Notes under the pieces: generated by a model
The model's database searches: none
Seen by the model: only the letters and a program-made list of their open reading frames with translations
What the model was told of the DNA's origin: nothing
Shown: positions 1 to 45,497 of the stretch, in pieces
How the letters are laid out: each line of letters begins with the position of its first letter
Position numbering within the stretch: position 1 is the first letter of the stretch
Translations under genes and position numbers: made by a program
Assembly (NCBI RefSeq): GCF_055900595.2
Contig: NZ_CM148325.1
DNA: 64,000 nucleotides
Direction: 5' to 3' (one strand)

Positions 1-2400
1 CTGCTCAATTTTGGCAATTGAGCTTAGCGGCACCACGCCACCGTCGCTGCTGGTCAGGCGGATAGTATCCAGCGCCGCGAGGCCTGGGGTATTTTCGGTG
101 TTGTGTTCCAGCACCACGCGATACTGGTTGGCCTGAGTATAAATAGTGGAAATCAGTCGCTGACCAAACGCGTTGTACAGGGCGTTATCGACGTCCGCCA
201 TGCTGATCCCCAGACGGCTGGCGCTGTCGCGATCAACATTGACATACGCCACCAGCCCTTTGTCCTGCCAGTCACTGGAGACATCAGAAAGCTGTGGCAG
301 CTGCTGGAGTTTTTCCACGAGTTGCGGCACCCAGGTGCTGAGCGCATCCAGCGATGTGGCCTGCAAGGTAAACTGGTACTGGGTGCGGCTGACCTGAGTA
401 TCGATAGTCAGATCCTGCGTTGGTTGAAGGAAGAGATCGACACCCGGCACTTTATCGACCGCCGATTGTAGACGGGAGATAACTTTTTGCACCCGGTCAT
501 CACGTTCATCCAGCGGTTTGAGGTTGATTTGTAAACGCGCACTGTTCAGTGATGGGTTAGTGCCATCAACGCCAACAAATGAGGTCAGACTTTGCACTGC
601 CGGATCCTGCAAAATCACATCCGCGACCTGGCGTTGCCGCTGGGCCATATTGGCAAAGGAGCTGGACTGCGGTGCCTGCAAAGTGCCCTGAATAATGCCG
701 TTGTCCTGTACCGGGAAGAAACCTTTCGGAATGAACACCCATAAGAGAACGCTCAGCAGCAGCGTGCTGAGCGCCACGCTTAAGGTCAGCCACGGATGAT
801 TCAGCACTTTCGTAAGTCCACGACCATAGGCGGCAATTATCCTGTCGAACATTTTTTCCGAGGCCCGGGAGAAGCGGTTCTGTTTACGCAGCGACTCCTG
901 GCTGAGCATCCGCGCGCACATCATCGGTGTCAGGGTCAGAGACACCACGGCTGAGATCAAAATCGCGACGGCCAGAGTAATAGCAAATTCGCGGAACAGT
1001 CGCCCGACGATATCGCCCATAAACAGCAGTGGGATCAACACCGCAATCAGTGAGAAGGTCAGCGAGATAATGGTAAAGCCGATTTCACCCGCGCCCTTGA
1101 GCGCCGCCGCCAACGGTTTTTCGCCTTTTTCGATATAGCGGGAAATGTTTTCGATCACCACGATGGCGTCATCGACCACGAATCCGGTGGCGATAGTTAA
1201 CGCCATCAGCGTCAGGTTATTGATTGAAAAATCGAGAAACACCATAACCGCAAAGGTGCCAATTAACGACAGCGGCACGGCGACGCCAGGAATGATAGTC
1301 GCCGGAATATTGCGCAAAAACAGGTAGATAATCATGACTACCAGCGCGATAGCCATCATCAATTCAAACTGGGTATCGTTGACCGATGCGCGGATATTGG
1401 TAGTGCGATCGGAAAGTACCGTCACTTTTACCGATTTCGGCAGACTCTCGGTGAGCTGTGGCAGCATCTGCCGGATGCTGTCGGCGGTGGAGATAATGTT
1501 AGCACCAGGCTGGCGCTGAACATTCATCACAATGGCCTGTTCTTTGTTCGCCCATGCGCCAAGCCAACTGTTTTCTGCGCCTTGTTCAACGGTTGCGACA
1601 TCACCAAGACGAATCGGCGCGCCGTTCTGGTAGGCAATAATTAGCTGGCGATACTCTTCGGCGGATTGCATCTGGTCGTTCGCGGAAAGGGTGACCGCGC
1701 GGGAAGGGCCGTCGAGGCTACCTTTAGCCGAGTTAACGTTAGCACCGGTAATGGCGGTGCGCACGGTTTCGCTGGTCAGGCCGAGGGCGGCAATCGCCTG
1801 GGCGTTAAGTTTGACGCGAACAGCCGGACGCTGACCGCCGGAAAGCGTCACCAGCCCGACGCCGGAAATCTGCGAGATCTTCTGCGCGACGCGGGTTTCC
1901 ACCATATCTTCCACTTGCGTCATCGGCATGGCGGTTGATGTGACGGCAAGCGTCATGATCGGCGGATCTGCCGGATTCACTTTGCTGTATACCGGAGGGT
2001 TAGGCAGATCGCTCGGCAACAGGTTAGTGGCGGCGTTAATCGCGGCCTGCACTTCCTGCTCGGCGACATCCAGCGGCAATGTTAGCTGGAATTGCAAGGT
2101 GATAACTGACGCGCCGCCGGAACTTTGCGATGACATCTGTTTCAGGCCAGACATCTGCCCAAATTGGCGTTCGAGCGGCGCAGTAACGGCGGAGGTCATG
2201 ACATCCGGGCTGGCGCCAGGGTAGAGCGTGACCACCTGAATGGTCGGATAGTCCACTTCCGGCAGCGCCGAAACGGGCAGGGCGCGATATCCGATAATCC
2301 CGGCGAGTAAGATCGCCACCATCAGCAGCGTGGTGGCAACAGGACGCATAATAAACAGGCGCGACGGACCGCCTGTGCTGCTCGGGGGTAACACCTGCAT
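1..2400 (-). CDS. mdtB: Multidrug efflux RND permease MdtB, N-terminal part; gene continues beyond window start
   Basis: Reverse-strand ATG at 2400-2398 reads [20 protein letters not shown], which I recognise as the MdtB N-terminus. It overlaps the mdtA stop (ATGA). No stop codon in window, hence absent from ORF track. Confidence 0.85.
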
Positions 2401-3647
2401 CAGGAGCGTGCTCCTTTTTTCGCGTATTCGCGGCTGGTGGCTTTCTCTTCCGAAGTGGTGGCGCTCTGGGCTTCCACTACTTCCACTTTCGCCCCTTCGG
2501 TCAGGCGATCAATGCCGTCTGTCACTACGCGGTCGCCCGCAGAAATACCTGCGCGGATAACCACTTTCTCACTGTCCTGAATGCCCGGCGTCACCAGATG
2601 TTTGCTGACCTTGTTTTCGCTATTCAGCACCCAGACAAAATGGCCTTCATTGCCCATTTGCAGGGCGGCAGTTGGGATCACCACGGCGTTTTGTTCGGTG
2701 TCGACTAACATACGCGCGTTAACAAACTGATTGGGAAACAGTGCATCATCCTGATTATTAAAGCGTGCTTTCACTTTAATCGTACCGGTAGTGGCATCGA
2801 TTTGGTTATCGAGACTTAACAGCGTGCCTTCACTTAATTTCTTCGAGTTGGTGCGATCCCAGGCTTCTACCACCAGCGGTTTTCCGGCTTTTTGCGCCTG
2901 CACAACGGTAGCGATATCGCTTTCCGGCAGGGTAAAGACTAAATCGATAGGGTGCGTCTGGGTGATCACCACAATCCCGGTGGTATCACCACTGGAGATT
3001 TGGTTACCAACATCAACCTGCTTGAGACCAACGCGACCATCGACTGGCGCGGTGATGCGGCTCCAGTCGAGTTGCAGCTGTGCGCTGGCGACGCTTGCTT
3101 CATCAGCCTTAATGGTGCCTTCGGTTTCACTGACCAGCGCCTGTTGGGCATCCAGTTCCTGACGGGAGACGAGATTGGTTTTTGCCAGTTGCTGATAACG
3201 CGCTAAATCACGGCGGGCGTTGGCAAGCGTGGCTTTATCTTTTGCCAGTTGGCCCTGGGCTTGTGCTAATGCAACTTTGAACTGGCTGGGGTCAATTTCT
3301 GCCAGTAAATCGCCTGCTTTGACCTGCTGACCCTCCTGGAAATGTAATGCCATCAGTTGACCATCTACGCGACTGCGCACCGTAACGGTGTTAGCAGCGG
3401 TAATCGTACCAAGCCCGGTGAGGTAACGCGGAACTGCCTGTTCTACGGCTGTCGCCGCCTGAACCGGGGCTAATGGGCCGGAACGCATACCACGGCGACC
3501 ACCCGCTGGCGATTGCTGCGCTTGCTTCGTCGCACCTGGCGCTGCGCTCTGGGATTCATTGCGGCCTTGCCAGAACCAGAAAGCGGCGATGGCGGCGATA
3601 ACCACCACGATTACGATTACCCAACGGGATTTATTACTGCCTTTCAT
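2400..3647 (-). CDS. mdtA: Multidrug efflux membrane fusion protein MdtA (415 aa)
   Basis: Track ORF 2400..3794 trimmed to ATG at 3647 ([23 protein letters not shown]...). HlyD/RND adaptor-like coiled-coil sequence; synteny with mdtB. Confidence 0.9.
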
Positions 3648-3875
3648 CGTTAAGAGTTTCTCTTCCTGAAACGTTTCGCGGAATGATACTAGTGTAGCCA
3701 GCCAATAAGGGAGAAAAATGGAGGAATTATGAAACACTGTCGGGAATCGTCTGAATGGCAGGCACTTTTGCGAGCACGCATCCAGTAATAACACAGGAAA
3801 CTATTTTATCTGCGCGTTAGCGATAGACTGCATTCAGGGCAAAAGGAGGTAGGCCGACGATTTCAGCGGGACGCT

Positions 3876-4018
3876 GAAACGGGAAAGCCCCTCCCGAGGA
3901 AGGGGCCTTAAATAAGGAAAGGGTCATGATGAAGTGGATCATCATCGTGGTGCTCTTAGTCGTTAGCTACCCAGCTTACTAAGACTACCAGGGCGGGGGA
4001 AACCCCGCTCAACCCTCA
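3876..4018 (-). ncRNA. sib: Sib-family antisense sRNA (antitoxin), copy 1; ends approximate
   Basis: Reverse-strand promoter: -35 TTGACA (4053..4048), 17-bp spacer, -10 TATTTT (4030..4025). Fully antisense to ibs copy 1. Hairpin 3887..3907 plus U-rich tract on the minus strand is the candidate terminator. Confidence 0.6.
3926..3982 (+). CDS. ibs: Ibs-family type I toxin peptide, copy 1 (MMKWIIIVVLLVVSYPAY)
   Basis: 18-codon hydrophobic ORF with ATGATG start and RBS-like aggaaagg upstream, inside the first 328-bp tandem repeat. Matches Ibs toxin family features. Confidence 0.75.
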   Translation: MMKWIIIVVLLVVSYPAY

Positions 4019-4203
4019 CTCCTGAAAATATGCCTTCACGGTCAGAATGTCAATCCGCAGGCTTTGCAGTCTGCGATCCTGCCAGCAAATATTCTTTGCG
4101 AGTCGTTACGCAATAATCACAGATGAAACTATTTTATCTACGCGTTAGCGATAGACTGCATTCAGGGCAAAAGGAGGTAGGCCGACGATTTCAGCGGGAC
4201 GCT

Positions 4204-4346
4204 GAAACGGGAAAGCCCCTCCCGAGGAAGGGGCCTTAAATAAGGAAAGGGTCATGATGAAGCTACTCATCATCGTGGTGCTCTTAGTCATTAGCTTACC
4301 GGCTTACTAAGACTACCAGGGCGGGGGAAACCCCGCTCTACCCTCA
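4204..4346 (-). ncRNA. sib: Sib-family antisense sRNA, copy 2; ends approximate
   Basis: Reverse-strand -35 TTGACA at 4381..4376 with -10 TACTTT at 4358..4353 (17-bp spacer). Antisense to ibs copy 2. Confidence 0.55.
4254..4310 (+). CDS. ibs: Ibs-family type I toxin peptide, copy 2 (MMKLLIIVVLLVISLPAY)
   Basis: Same architecture as copy 1, displaced exactly 328 bp. Confidence 0.75.
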   Translation: MMKLLIIVVLLVISLPAY

Positions 4347-4531
4347 CTCCTGAAAGTATGCTTTCACAATCAGATTGTCAATCCGCAGGCTTTGTAGTCT
4401 GCGATCCTGCCAGCAAATATTCTTTGCGAGACGTTACGCAATAATCACATGTGAAACTATTTTATCTGCAAGTTAGCGATAGACTGCTTGCATGGCGAAA
4501 GGAGGTAGGCCGCCGATTTCAGCGGGACGCT

Positions 4532-4675
4532 GAAACGGGAAAGCCCCTCCCGAGGAAGGGGCCTTAAATAAGGAAAGGGTCATGATGAAGCTACTCATCA
4601 TCGTGGTGCTCTTAGTTATTAGCTGGCCAGCTTACTAAGACTACCAGGGCGGGGGGAAACCCCGCTCTACCCTCA
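4532..4675 (-). ncRNA. sib: Sib-family antisense sRNA, copy 3; ends approximate
   Basis: Reverse-strand -35 TTGACA at 4710..4705; weaker -10 (TAACTT). Antisense to ibs copy 3. Confidence 0.5.
4582..4638 (+). CDS. ibs: Ibs-family type I toxin peptide, copy 3 (MMKLLIIVVLLVISWPAY)
   Basis: Third repeat unit, 328 bp after copy 2; same start context. Confidence 0.75.
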   Translation: MMKLLIIVVLLVISWPAY

Positions 4676-4856
4676 CTCCTGAAGTTATGTTACTCCACCC
4701 TTATTGTCAATCTGTAAGTCCACGTTCTTGCGGGGCGAATAGCAAAACCCTCTGCGCTTATGGGCCGAATTCTGAAAGTTGCTTTGCCTGCTCTTATTTC
4801 ATTGTTGCAGTCGGTATGATACCGGACCTCAATAATTCTCTAAGAAAGGATTTCTT

Positions 4857-5516
4857 ATGAGCGAACAAATCACGTTTGCCACCAGCGATTTTGCCAGTAA
4901 CCCGGAACCACGTTGCCCCTGCATTTTGCTGTTGGATGTTTCTGGTTCGATGAGTGGTAGACCTATTAATGAACTTAACGCCGGATTGGTTGCCTTTCGC
5001 GATGAGCTGCTTGCCGATTCGCTGGCTTTAAAAAGAGTGGAACTCGGTATTGTGACGTTCGGCCCGGTGCATGTGGAACAACCATTTACCAGCGCCGCTA
5101 ATTTTTTCCCGCCCATCCTGTTTGCCCAGGGCGATACACCAATGGGGGCCGCCATTACCAAAGCCCTGGATATGGTTGAGGAGCGCAAACGTGAGTATCG
5201 AGCCAATGGTATTTCCTATTATCGTCCGTGGATTTTCCTGATTACCGATGGCGCACCAACCGATGAGTGGCAGGCTGCTGCCAACAAGGTGTTTCAGGGG
5301 GAAGAAGATAAGAAGTTTGCCTTCTTTTCCATCGGTGTTCAGGGGGCGGATATGAAGACGCTGGCCCAAATCAGCGTTCGTCAGCCTTTGCCTCTTCAAG
5401 GATTACAATTCCGCGAACTGTTTAGCTGGTTATCCAGTTCGCTGCGTTCGGTTTCCCGCTCCACGCCGGGAACGGAAGTTGTACTGGAAGCGCCAAAAGG
5501 CTGGACGTCAGTGTGA
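4857..5516 (+). CDS. yegL: von Willebrand factor A domain protein YegL (219 aa)
   Basis: ATG at 4857 with RBS aaagga. MIDAS-like motif DVSGSM near the N-terminus. Confidence 0.9.
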
Positions 5517-20710: not shown

Positions 20711-20750
20711 TCAGTGTATTGGTAGCTAAAAAGCCAGGGGCGGTAGCGTG
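20711..20750 (+). promoter_or_regulatory. JUMPStart element with ops site (GGCGGTAGCGTG at 20739..20750) in the wza leader
   Basis: Exact ops motif; cagtg...ggtagc...ggcggtagcgtg arrangement typical of RfaH-dependent polysaccharide operons. Confidence 0.8.
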
Positions 20751-35285: not shown

Positions 35286-35366
35286 GAAACCGCGGTGTAA
35301 ATAACGACAAATATAAAATTGGCCGTTTCGGTCAGGGCCAACTATTGCCTGAAAAAGGGTAACGAC

Positions 35367-45458: not shown

Positions 45459-45497
45459 CAGTGCACTGGTAGCTGTAAAGCCTGGGGCGGTAGCGTG
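45459..45497 (+). promoter_or_regulatory. JUMPStart element with ops site (GGCGGTAGCGTG at 45486..45497) for the O-antigen operon
   Basis: Near-identical to the wza-leader JUMPStart at 20711..20750. Confidence 0.8.

Follow-up and report, generated by a model that had tools for sequence, protein, structure and literature searches.

Escherichia coli K-12 carries two ibs/sib units, sibB/ibsB and sibA/ibsA, between mdtA and yegL. In the stretch of DNA analysed here (64,000 nt of contig NZ_CM148325.1, RefSeq assembly GCF_055900595.2; hereafter the window), three tandem units (3766-4749) occupy the same interval. This raises the questions of whether all three are type I toxin-antitoxin modules, where the extra unit comes from, and how far the antisense RNA of one unit would act on the toxin mRNAs of the others. 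Tandem Repeats Finder reported a single array (3786-4683; period 328, 2.7 copies, 93% matches, score 1563), and a separate repeat search found three copies with start-to-start spacings of 328 and 328. The pairwise divergence among the three units was 8.5-20%. The repeat spacing, the intact ORFs and the Rfam SIB_RNA matches described below bear out the core of the original prediction, namely that the locus is an array of three tandem 328-bp ibs/sib type I modules with differing peptides; the two units that it gave for K-12, sibB and sibA, agree with the K-12 annotation. E. coli M160133 matches the window at 100% identity, and in its RefSeq annotation three genes are named 'type I toxin-antitoxin system Ibs family toxin'. 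With the three ORFs already annotated in this very genome, their presence has little weight as a discovery, and the Ibs/Sib family, its mechanism, its tandem organization and its copy-number variation among strains have all been published already.

Table 1. Positions in the window of the ibs/sib units, their predicted elements and the flanking genes.
Feature	Position	Strand	Remarks
mdtA	2400-3647	-	left flank gene
Repeat unit 1	3766-4093		328 bp, adjoins mdtA; identity to K-12 ibsB/sibB unit 93.3%
ibs ORF 1	3926-3982	+	MMKWIIIVVLLVVSYPAY; RefSeq WP_224219350.1, annotated from second ATG
Sib RNA 1	3882-4017	-	136 nt; Rfam 136.1 bits; fold z = -4.75
SIB_RNA match, unit 1	4053-3911	-	RF00113, full-length; 136.1 bits
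sib-1 promoter (predicted)	4025-4053	-	TTGACA, 17 nt, TATTTT
TRD1 equivalent, Sib1	3954-3976	-	Sib +42 to +64, top of hairpin P5; overlaps ibs codons 10-17
P6 loop, Sib1	3932-3939	-	overlaps ibs codons 3-5
TRD2 equivalent, Sib1	3907-3926	-	pairs with ibs ribosome-binding and start region
Repeat unit 2	4094-4421		328 bp; identity 91.5% to unit 1, 92.7% to K-12 ibsB unit
ibs ORF 2	4254-4310	+	MMKLLIIVVLLVISLPAY; RefSeq WP_103054298.1
Sib RNA 2	4210-4345	-	136 nt; Rfam 139.6 bits; fold z = -4.47
SIB_RNA match, unit 2	4381-4239	-	RF00113, full-length; 139.6 bits
sib-2 promoter (predicted)	4353-4381	-	TTGACA, 17 nt, TACTTT; -10 is that of K-12 sibB
TRD1 equivalent, Sib2	4282-4304	-	
P6 loop, Sib2	4260-4267	-	
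TRD2 equivalent, Sib2	4235-4254	-	
Repeat unit 3	4422-4749		hybrid: B-type core, A-type sib promoter and yegL-side flank
ibs ORF 3	4582-4638	+	MMKLLIIVVLLVISWPAY; RefSeq WP_100249772.1
Sib RNA 3	4538-4674	-	137 nt, extra G in P2 loop; Rfam 136.1 bits; fold z = -4.45
SIB_RNA match, unit 3	4710-4567	-	RF00113, full-length; 136.1 bits
sib-3 promoter (predicted)	4682-4710	-	TTGACA, 17 nt, TAACTT; A-type origin; K-12 sibA has TAATTT
TRD1 equivalent, Sib3	4610-4632	-	
P6 loop, Sib3	4588-4595	-	
TRD2 equivalent, Sib3	4563-4582	-	
yegL	4857-5516	+	right flank gene

The translations confirmed an 18-codon hydrophobic Ibs ORF on the + strand of each unit. An ORF was taken to be Ibs-type if it encoded 18-19 amino acids with an MMK/R start, a hydrophobic core and an S-x-x-A/T-Y end; all three are intact, run opposite to the sRNA gene and lie wholly within it. 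The peptides are identical to K-12 IbsB at 14-17 of the 18 residues and differ among the units at residues 4-5, 13 and 15. The differences noted at residue 4 (W/L/L) and near the C-terminus had been read correctly; that at residue 5 (I/L/L) had been missed. All three cores are IbsB-like; neither an IbsA-type ORF (19 amino acids, MMKHVIILVILLVISFQAY) nor a SibA-type core was found in the window. Ibs-family peptides depolarise the membrane when over-produced. For the K-12 paralogues, over-production of the peptide was found to be toxic and the toxicity to be relieved by the Sib RNA (PMC2943612, PMC8309996).

On the opposite strand, each unit gave a full-length match to Rfam family RF00113 (SIB_RNA), with E-values of about 1e-29 and scores far above the gathering score of 56 (Table 1). 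The annotated ends of K-12 sibB served, by homology, to position those of the Sib RNAs, which puts the 5′-end 35 nt past the ibs stop codon and the 3′-end 44 nt upstream of the ATG. So placed, each Sib RNA would span the whole ORF and its ribosome-binding site, to which it is perfectly complementary, as had been foreseen for the ORF. The minimum-free-energy folds of the three RNAs have the shape of K-12 SibB, consistent with membership of this sRNA family. K-12 sibB/ibsB (b4437/b4668) is alike in locus, orientation, predicted fold and terminator hairpin, and the three Sib RNAs differ from SibB at only 4-10 of 136 positions. The antisense promoter expected on the - strand of each unit was recognizable at the sequence level as a predicted sigma-70 promoter with a perfect TTGACA -35 region and a 17-nt spacer; in all three units the -10 region is separated by 7 nt from the G at which the Sib RNA would start. 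The -10 region of copy 1 matches the consensus at four of six positions, while those of copy 2, copy 3 and K-12 sibB match at three; the suggestion of a weaker -10 region in copy 3 therefore holds relative to copy 1, but not relative to copy 2 or K-12 sibB. Within the sib genes, ORFs of 42-48 amino acids on the - strand were rejected as coding, as they are a known non-coding RNA read in reverse.

A consensus scan of the + strand in the three units found no ibs promoter or transcription start, and transcription of ibs is therefore assumed from homology. Alignment with the upstream regions of K-12 ibsC, ibsD and ibsE revealed a conserved TTTGCG(A/T)G block and no convincing -35/-10 pair. A guessed ibs-1 mRNA (3836-4012, the start itself being a guess) gave a fold z of -2.85.

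These features suggest that each unit would produce an 18-residue hydrophobic Ibs peptide from the + strand and, from a constitutive promoter on the - strand, a Sib RNA of about 136 nt perfectly complementary to the ibs ORF and its ribosome-binding site. Pairing of a Sib RNA with its target begins through the TRD1 loop, which lies inside the ORF, and through TRD2, in the translation-initiation region. The pairing would block translation and trigger RNase III-dependent decay; a translation block and the involvement of RNase III were described by Wen and Fozo 2014 (PMC4147584). Taken as a whole, including the origin and the cross-repression proposed below, the explanation of the locus as a three-unit tandem chromosomal Ibs/Sib array at the K-12 sibB-sibA site is one in which we place high confidence.

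The extra copy relative to K-12 proved to be ordinary, since EDL933 has three units at this locus, BL21, GN06156 and 09A19CPO004B have four each, and about half of the genomes sampled have three or more (at least three in 29 of 60 evenly spaced complete E. coli genomes, partial-match counts being lower bounds). K-12 is thus unrepresentative of the mdtA-yegL locus. Differences in copy number had been noted earlier, with seven Ibs genes in O157:H7 Sakai versus five in K-12 (Fozo et al. 2010, PMC2887945). The arrays of EDL933, BL21, GN06156 and 09A19CPO004B are like that of the window in their locus, their 328-bp units and their B-type cores, and the P6-loop alleles CTACTC, TGGATC and ATACTC are common to the window and these arrays. 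Compared with K-12 sibB/ibsB, the window has other TRD1 loop alleles, and three B-type copies instead of one. The four arrays, however, end in a canonical ibsA unit, whereas that of the window ends in a B/A hybrid. Among the matches listed, this hybrid-ended architecture was found in nine records (identity of at least 97%) at the top of the identity ranking.

Unit 3 lies next to yegL, as does K-12 sibA/ibsA (b4436/b4667), and its sib promoter spacer and yegL-side flank are of the sibA/ibsA type. Up to the conserved segment ACCCTCACTCCTGAA its sequence is that of unit 3 in the four-unit array of 09A19CPO004B, which encodes the same peptide (WP_100249772.1), save for an extra G and one substitution; the latter falls near alignment column 270, within the conserved segment that holds the junction. 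Past ACCCTCACTCCTGAA, unit 3 follows the flank of an ibsA unit, so the hybrid junction lies within that segment. Since its core is that of unit 3 in the four-unit array of another strain, the arrangement points to the loss of one unit by recombination from such an array, a direction of change that we infer; most simply, unit 3 would derive from an array of three B-type units followed by IbsA. Many positions distinguish the A-type flank in unit 3 from those of K-12 and 09A19CPO004B, which suggests that the recombination is old or involved a divergent donor. The array itself probably arose when units underwent unequal crossing-over or gene conversion with one another, and ibs/sib arrays evolve by the gain, loss and hybrid formation of units.

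The differences among the units are not spread evenly over the Sib RNAs. The TRD1 equivalent was mapped by alignment from positions +46 to +68 of SibC. TRD1 shows four differing positions in every pairwise comparison of the three units, and the P6 loop reads UCCACUU in Sib1 and GUAGCUU in Sib2 and Sib3, while TRD2 and the translation-initiation segment show no differences at all. Eleven sites vary among the three RNAs; five are in TRD1, and nine of the eleven are in TRD1 or the P6 loop (p = 2e-5), a clustering test that is not fully independent because Han et al. 2010 (PMC2943612) had already called these two regions 'highly variable'. Over 12 B-type units from five strains, 11 of 14 variable sites lay in TRD1 or the P6 loop (p = 4e-6). 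In the ORFs, codons 1-3, 6-11, 14 and 18 are invariant, and codons 12, 13, 16 and 17 show synonymous third-position changes.

K-12 Sib RNAs repress only their cognate ibs mRNAs, ibsA excepted (Han et al. 2010, PMC2943612), and the original prediction had reasoned that unequal promoters might leave the copies unequally repressed and therefore unequally toxic. Such mutual insulation of the modules would agree with the differing -10 regions and with TRD1 loops that differ at four positions in each pair. In cognate-only pairs of the K-12 kind, however, paralogues would differ in both TRD1 and TRD2, so that a Sib RNA leaves non-cognate targets unrepressed. Here the three units share one TRD2 sequence, and Han et al. 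2010 (PMC2943612) showed a single matching TRD to be enough for repression. The three Sib RNAs differ from one another at 5-10 sites, against 15 for SibD/SibE, the closest K-12 pair, three of which are in TRD2; uninterrupted identity extends over 79 nt between Sib2 and Sib3, and over 53 nt between Sib1 and each of the others. Moreover, copies 2 and 3 score equally at the -10 region, and equal to the well-expressed K-12 sibB. Insulated, unequally repressed modules therefore seem unlikely. As TRD2 is common to the three units and the P6 loop to units 2 and 3, each Sib RNA probably also represses the targets of the other two. Repression by TRD2 also requires the P1 stem and a contact with the P6 loop (Han et al. 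2010, PMC2943612); as Sib1 differs from Sib2 and Sib3 at four P6-loop positions, unit 1 is less certain to repress the other units or to be repressed by them. The reasoning from promoter strength left the shared recognition elements out of account, and cross-repression through them would probably buffer differences between promoters.

One or more units might instead be decaying, the toxin having been inactivated by the change at residue 15 or ibs being no longer transcribed, so that the array would be a relic. All five K-12 Ibs peptides have F at residue 15, where the three units have Y, L or W (unit 1 also has W4-I5 for the L4-L5 of K-12 IbsB), and a review of IbsC mutagenesis reports C-terminal residues to be needed for toxicity (PMC8309996). 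When the 57-nt ORFs were searched for in 5,426 complete E. coli genomes, the exact nucleotide allele of ORF 1 was present in 15 and that of ORF 2 in M160133 only, and the latter result, like the ibs promoter scan, could be read as a sign of decay. The exact W15 allele of ORF 3, however, is present in 421 of these genomes, Y15 alleles are present in the EDL933, BL21 and GN06156 arrays, and Y, L and W are all hydrophobic. In addition, the ORF, Shine-Dalgarno region, Sib structure and perfect -35 box of each unit are intact, and the variation is confined to the RNA loops, with no frameshifts or stops. We therefore regard decay as quite improbable. Another concern, raised with the prediction itself, was that the locus might have only two units, with unit 3 as an artefact of assembly or duplication. 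Tandem 328-bp repeats are prone to mis-assembly, and an error in sequencing the homopolymer of six Gs at 4651-4656 might account for the extra G of unit 3. Yet the units are 8.5-20% apart and each has a distinct ORF allele, nine complete genome records that were deposited separately contain this three-unit array (97-100% identity), the alignment with one close relative, 2020CK-00188, is collinear across it, and arrays of three and four units are common across E. coli. These comparisons already refute an artefactual origin of unit 3, a reading with practically no chance of being correct.

The peptide differences can also be viewed from the side of the RNA. What had been described as divergent peptides maps onto the recognition loops of the antisense RNA: the changes at residues 4-5, 13 and 15 fall where the Sib P6 and TRD1 loops lie, which makes diversification of RNA recognition at least as likely an explanation for them as tuning of the peptide. 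Studies of paralogue toxicity must consequently separate RNA from peptide effects and weigh cross-repression through TRD2. A broader proposal, possible but held only tentatively, is that B-type units diversify almost exclusively in TRD1 (hairpin P5) and P6, with loop cassettes that gene conversion or unequal crossing-over seems to shuffle from unit to unit. Peptide changes would then be largely by-products, those at residues 4-5 and 13-15 arising from selection for neighbours that are distinct at the RNA level, and the shared TRD2 would act as a common safety net. Strain M160133 would then be a natural example of a partial collapse of this distinctness: codon 4 of unit 2 begins with a C in this genome only, which makes the P6 loop of unit 2 equal to that of unit 3. 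In 2020CK-00188, the sole close relative in which this codon was examined, it reads ATA (Ile).

Small hydrophobic toxins with sRNA antitoxins, likewise in tandem within one intergenic region, are also found in ldr/rdl (the LDR repeats) and in zorO-orzO/zorP-orzP, and the copy number of both depends on the strain (PMC2887945, PMC3919570). Their peptide and RNA families are unrelated to Ibs and Sib, however, and Rdl and Orz pair with the 5′ region only, whereas Sib overlaps the entire ORF.

The interval between mdtA and yegL is partly filled by a tandem repeat, which Tandem Repeats Finder reported as one array (3786-4683, period 328, 2.7 copies, 93% matches) and a gap-free repeat finder as three copies at spacings of 328 and 328 bp. 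Each of the three units carried, on the + strand, an ORF beginning ATGATGAAG. An Rfam scan of the 64-kb window detected one SIB_RNA match (RF00113; gathering score 56) per unit and no Sib match beyond these three. The predicted folds of the corresponding antisense RNAs, Sib1-3, had the multi-hairpin shape of K-12 SibB (z = -4.4 to -4.75). The three tandem ibs/sib modules originally predicted are thereby confirmed, far beyond chance; the finding is real and was rightly interpreted, although the system is a known one and its configuration common.

Features of the ibs/sib array and its neighbours (window coordinates, except for the Sib RNA domains)
Feature	Position	Strand	Remarks
mdtA	2400-3647	-	left neighbour of array
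yegL	4857-5516	+	right neighbour of array
ibs ORF 1	3926-3982	+	peptide MMKWIIIVVLLVVSYPAY
ibs ORF 2	4254-4310	+	peptide MMKLLIIVVLLVISLPAY
ibs ORF 3	4582-4638	+	peptide MMKLLIIVVLLVISWPAY
SIB_RNA match, unit 1	4053-3911	-	full-length, 136.1 bits
SIB_RNA match, unit 2	4381-4239	-	full-length, 139.6 bits
SIB_RNA match, unit 3	4710-4567	-	full-length, 136.1 bits
Sib1	4017-3882	-	136 nt, by homology to K-12 sibB
Sib2	4345-4210	-	136 nt, by homology to K-12 sibB
Sib3	4674-4538	-	137 nt, by homology to K-12 sibB
Shine-Dalgarno-like AAGGAGGT	3843-3850, 4171-4178, 4499-4506	+	perfect in every unit, ~80 nt upstream of ibs ATG
TRD1 of Sib RNAs	Sib +42..+64		overlaps ibs codons 10-17
P6 loop of Sib RNAs	Sib +79..+86		overlaps ibs codons 3-5
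TRD2 of Sib RNAs	Sib +92..+111		overlaps ribosome-binding site and start codon

Each Rfam match opens with a perfect -35 box (TTGACA), followed by a 17-nt spacer, the -10 box (TATTTT, TACTTT and TAACTT for sib-1, sib-2 and sib-3, respectively), 7 nt and a G. With ends carried over from the annotated K-12 sibB, each Sib RNA spans the whole ibs ORF and the ribosome-binding region, which bears out at the sequence level the expectation of an antisense transcript over the entire ORF in every unit. The terminator hairpins are of the SibB type, for which ProQ binding in vitro is known (PMC10168233); Sib1-3 are therefore probably ProQ ligands as well. A run of six Gs (4651-4656) lies in the P2 loop of Sib3, in the ibs-3 3′ region outside the ORF. 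The homologous run has five Gs in units 1 and 2 and in the close relative 2020CK-00188, and the extra G reflects either a genuine insertion of 1 nt or a sequencing error in the homopolymer.

According to its annotation, K-12 MG1655 contains two units at this site, sibB/ibsB beside mdtA and sibA/ibsA beside yegL, so the window does have one more, as originally noted. A third copy at mdtA-yegL is not unusual, however: O157:H7 EDL933 has three units (two Ibs plus IbsA), and BL21, GN06156 and 09A19CPO004B have four. Of 60 records taken at even spacing from the 5,425 complete-genome records with a match, 29 carried three or more annotated ibs genes within the matching stretch, 13 carried exactly two and 1 a single gene, the remainder being partial matches whose counts are lower bounds only. 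Seven Ibs genes were reported in O157:H7 Sakai versus five in K-12, and repeated lineage-specific duplications were inferred (Fozo et al. 2010, PMC2887945). It is the specific haplotype of the window array, not the third copy, that is uncommon. Only nine records covered the entire interval in a single match of ≥97% identity, and the exact alleles of ORF1, ORF2 and ORF3 occurred in 15, 1 and 421 of 5,426 complete genomes. The uniqueness of the ORF2 allele is due to a single base at 4263, the first of ibs-2 codon 4, which is C (CTA, Leu) in the window and A (ATA, Ile) in 2020CK-00188, the one close relative compared. With this C, Sib2 and Sib3 have identical P6 loops; the base could have arisen by point mutation or by short gene conversion from unit 3. 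Ibs/Sib are usually described as chromosomal; among the 20,541 places where E. coli complete genomes match the interval, 9 were on plasmids, not chromosomes.

The cores of all three units are IbsB-like, and the array contains no IbsA-type ORF. Units 1 and 2 share ~93% identity with the ibsB unit of K-12, versus 77-80% with the ibsA unit. Alignment with the four-unit array of 09A19CPO004B showed unit 3 to be a mosaic of two unit types. From its start as far as the conserved segment ACCCTCACTCCTGAA, it agrees with unit 3 of that strain, bar one extra G, with a further substitution in the conserved junction segment (around alignment column 270), and both units encode the same peptide (WP_100249772.1). 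Beyond the junction it tracks the ibsA-unit flank (sib promoter spacer and yegL side), although this flank is fairly divergent from its K-12 counterpart. This is most simply explained if a four-unit array lost one 328-bp unit when adjacent units recombined, an event whose direction is inferred and which would have put a B-type Sib and ibs core under the control of an A-type sib promoter.

SibC has two independent target-recognition domains: TRD1 (+46 to +68, P5 loop), which pairs inside the ORF, and TRD2 (+99 to +115), which pairs over the translation-initiation region and requires the help of the P1 stem and P6 loop; one TRD alone is enough for repression, and swapping TRDs alters specificity (Han et al. 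2010, PMC2943612). When these positions were transferred to the window Sib RNAs by alignment with SibC, TRD1 or the P6 loop held 9 of the 11 positions varying among Sib1-3 (hypergeometric p = 2e-5) and 11 of the 14 variable columns among 12 B-type units from five strains (p = 4e-6), a test that is confirmatory rather than independent, as Han et al. had already called these regions variable. In the same 12 units, codons 12, 13, 16 and 17 showed synonymous third-position changes, while codons 1-3, 6-11, 14 and 18 were invariant at all positions. The P6-loop alleles CTACTC, TGGATC and ATACTC combine differently with TRD1 alleles between units and strains. The peptide differences noted earlier at residues 4-5 and 13-15 thus mirror, on the coding strand, the recognition loops of the Sib RNAs.

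TRD2 is identical in the three units. Sib2 and Sib3 differ at four positions in TRD1 and by a 1-nt loop indel (longest identical stretch 79 nt); Sib1 differs from either at four positions in TRD1, four in the P6 loop and one in P1 (53 nt). The closest K-12 pair, SibD and SibE, reported not to cross-react, has 15 differences, three of them in TRD2 (36 nt). Since TRD2 is shared and one matching TRD is enough, Sib1-3 would be expected to repress one another's targets, with the highest certainty between units 2 and 3. This predicted cross-repression weakens the original proposal that promoter differences lead to unequal repression. Further, the -10 box of copy 3, held to be weaker, is so only relative to copy 1 (3/6 versus 4/6 consensus positions); copy 2 and K-12 sibB (TACTTT) also match 3/6. 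The only mildly new points are that the third unit is a hybrid, that no unit is of the IbsA type, that peptide variation coincides with the Sib recognition loops, and that a TRD2 common to all units predicts cross-talk.

The Ibs peptides belong to the small membrane toxins and depolarise the membrane when over-produced (PMC8309996); in Salmonella, IbsA is reported to inhibit the Fo portion of ATP synthase (2025 preprint, 10.1101/2025.05.26.656083). Translation is blocked when Sib pairs with its target, and RNase III processes the duplex (PMC4147584). Judging from the family, the window pairs would act likewise, as membrane toxins subject to a translation block. Residue 15, F in all five K-12 peptides, is Y, L or W in the window; loss of function through this change seems unlikely, since all three residues are hydrophobic and the Y15 and W15 alleles are widespread among E. 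coli.

The mdtA-yegL interval is 100% identical to that of E. coli M160133 (NZ_CP022164.1, urine isolate), in which RefSeq annotates three 'type I toxin-antitoxin system Ibs family toxin' genes. Copy 1 starts there at the second ATG (L001 1870-1923, 54 nt, 17 aa) and in 2020CK-00188 at the first (57 nt), an annotation inconsistency. No start codon lies at the usual distance from the Shine-Dalgarno-like element in any unit. The frame across the leader is open for 38 codons. Only units 2 (ATG 4123) and 3 (GTG 4451) have a start codon in it, which unit 1 and the K-12 units lack; the element probably belongs to the ibs 5′ leader structure.

Elsewhere in the window, Rfam detected four tandem naRNA4/CssrE matches (RF02564; 39752-40111, - strand, 71.6-79.7 bits, gathering score 59.5), which look like a REP-type repeat cluster. 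Two JUMPstart elements (RF01707), typical of leaders of polysaccharide gene clusters, were found on the + strand at 20712-20750 and 45459-45497 (57.3 and 49.6 bits), as was an algC RNA motif (RF02929) at 35313-35362 (77.5 bits, gathering score 33.8).
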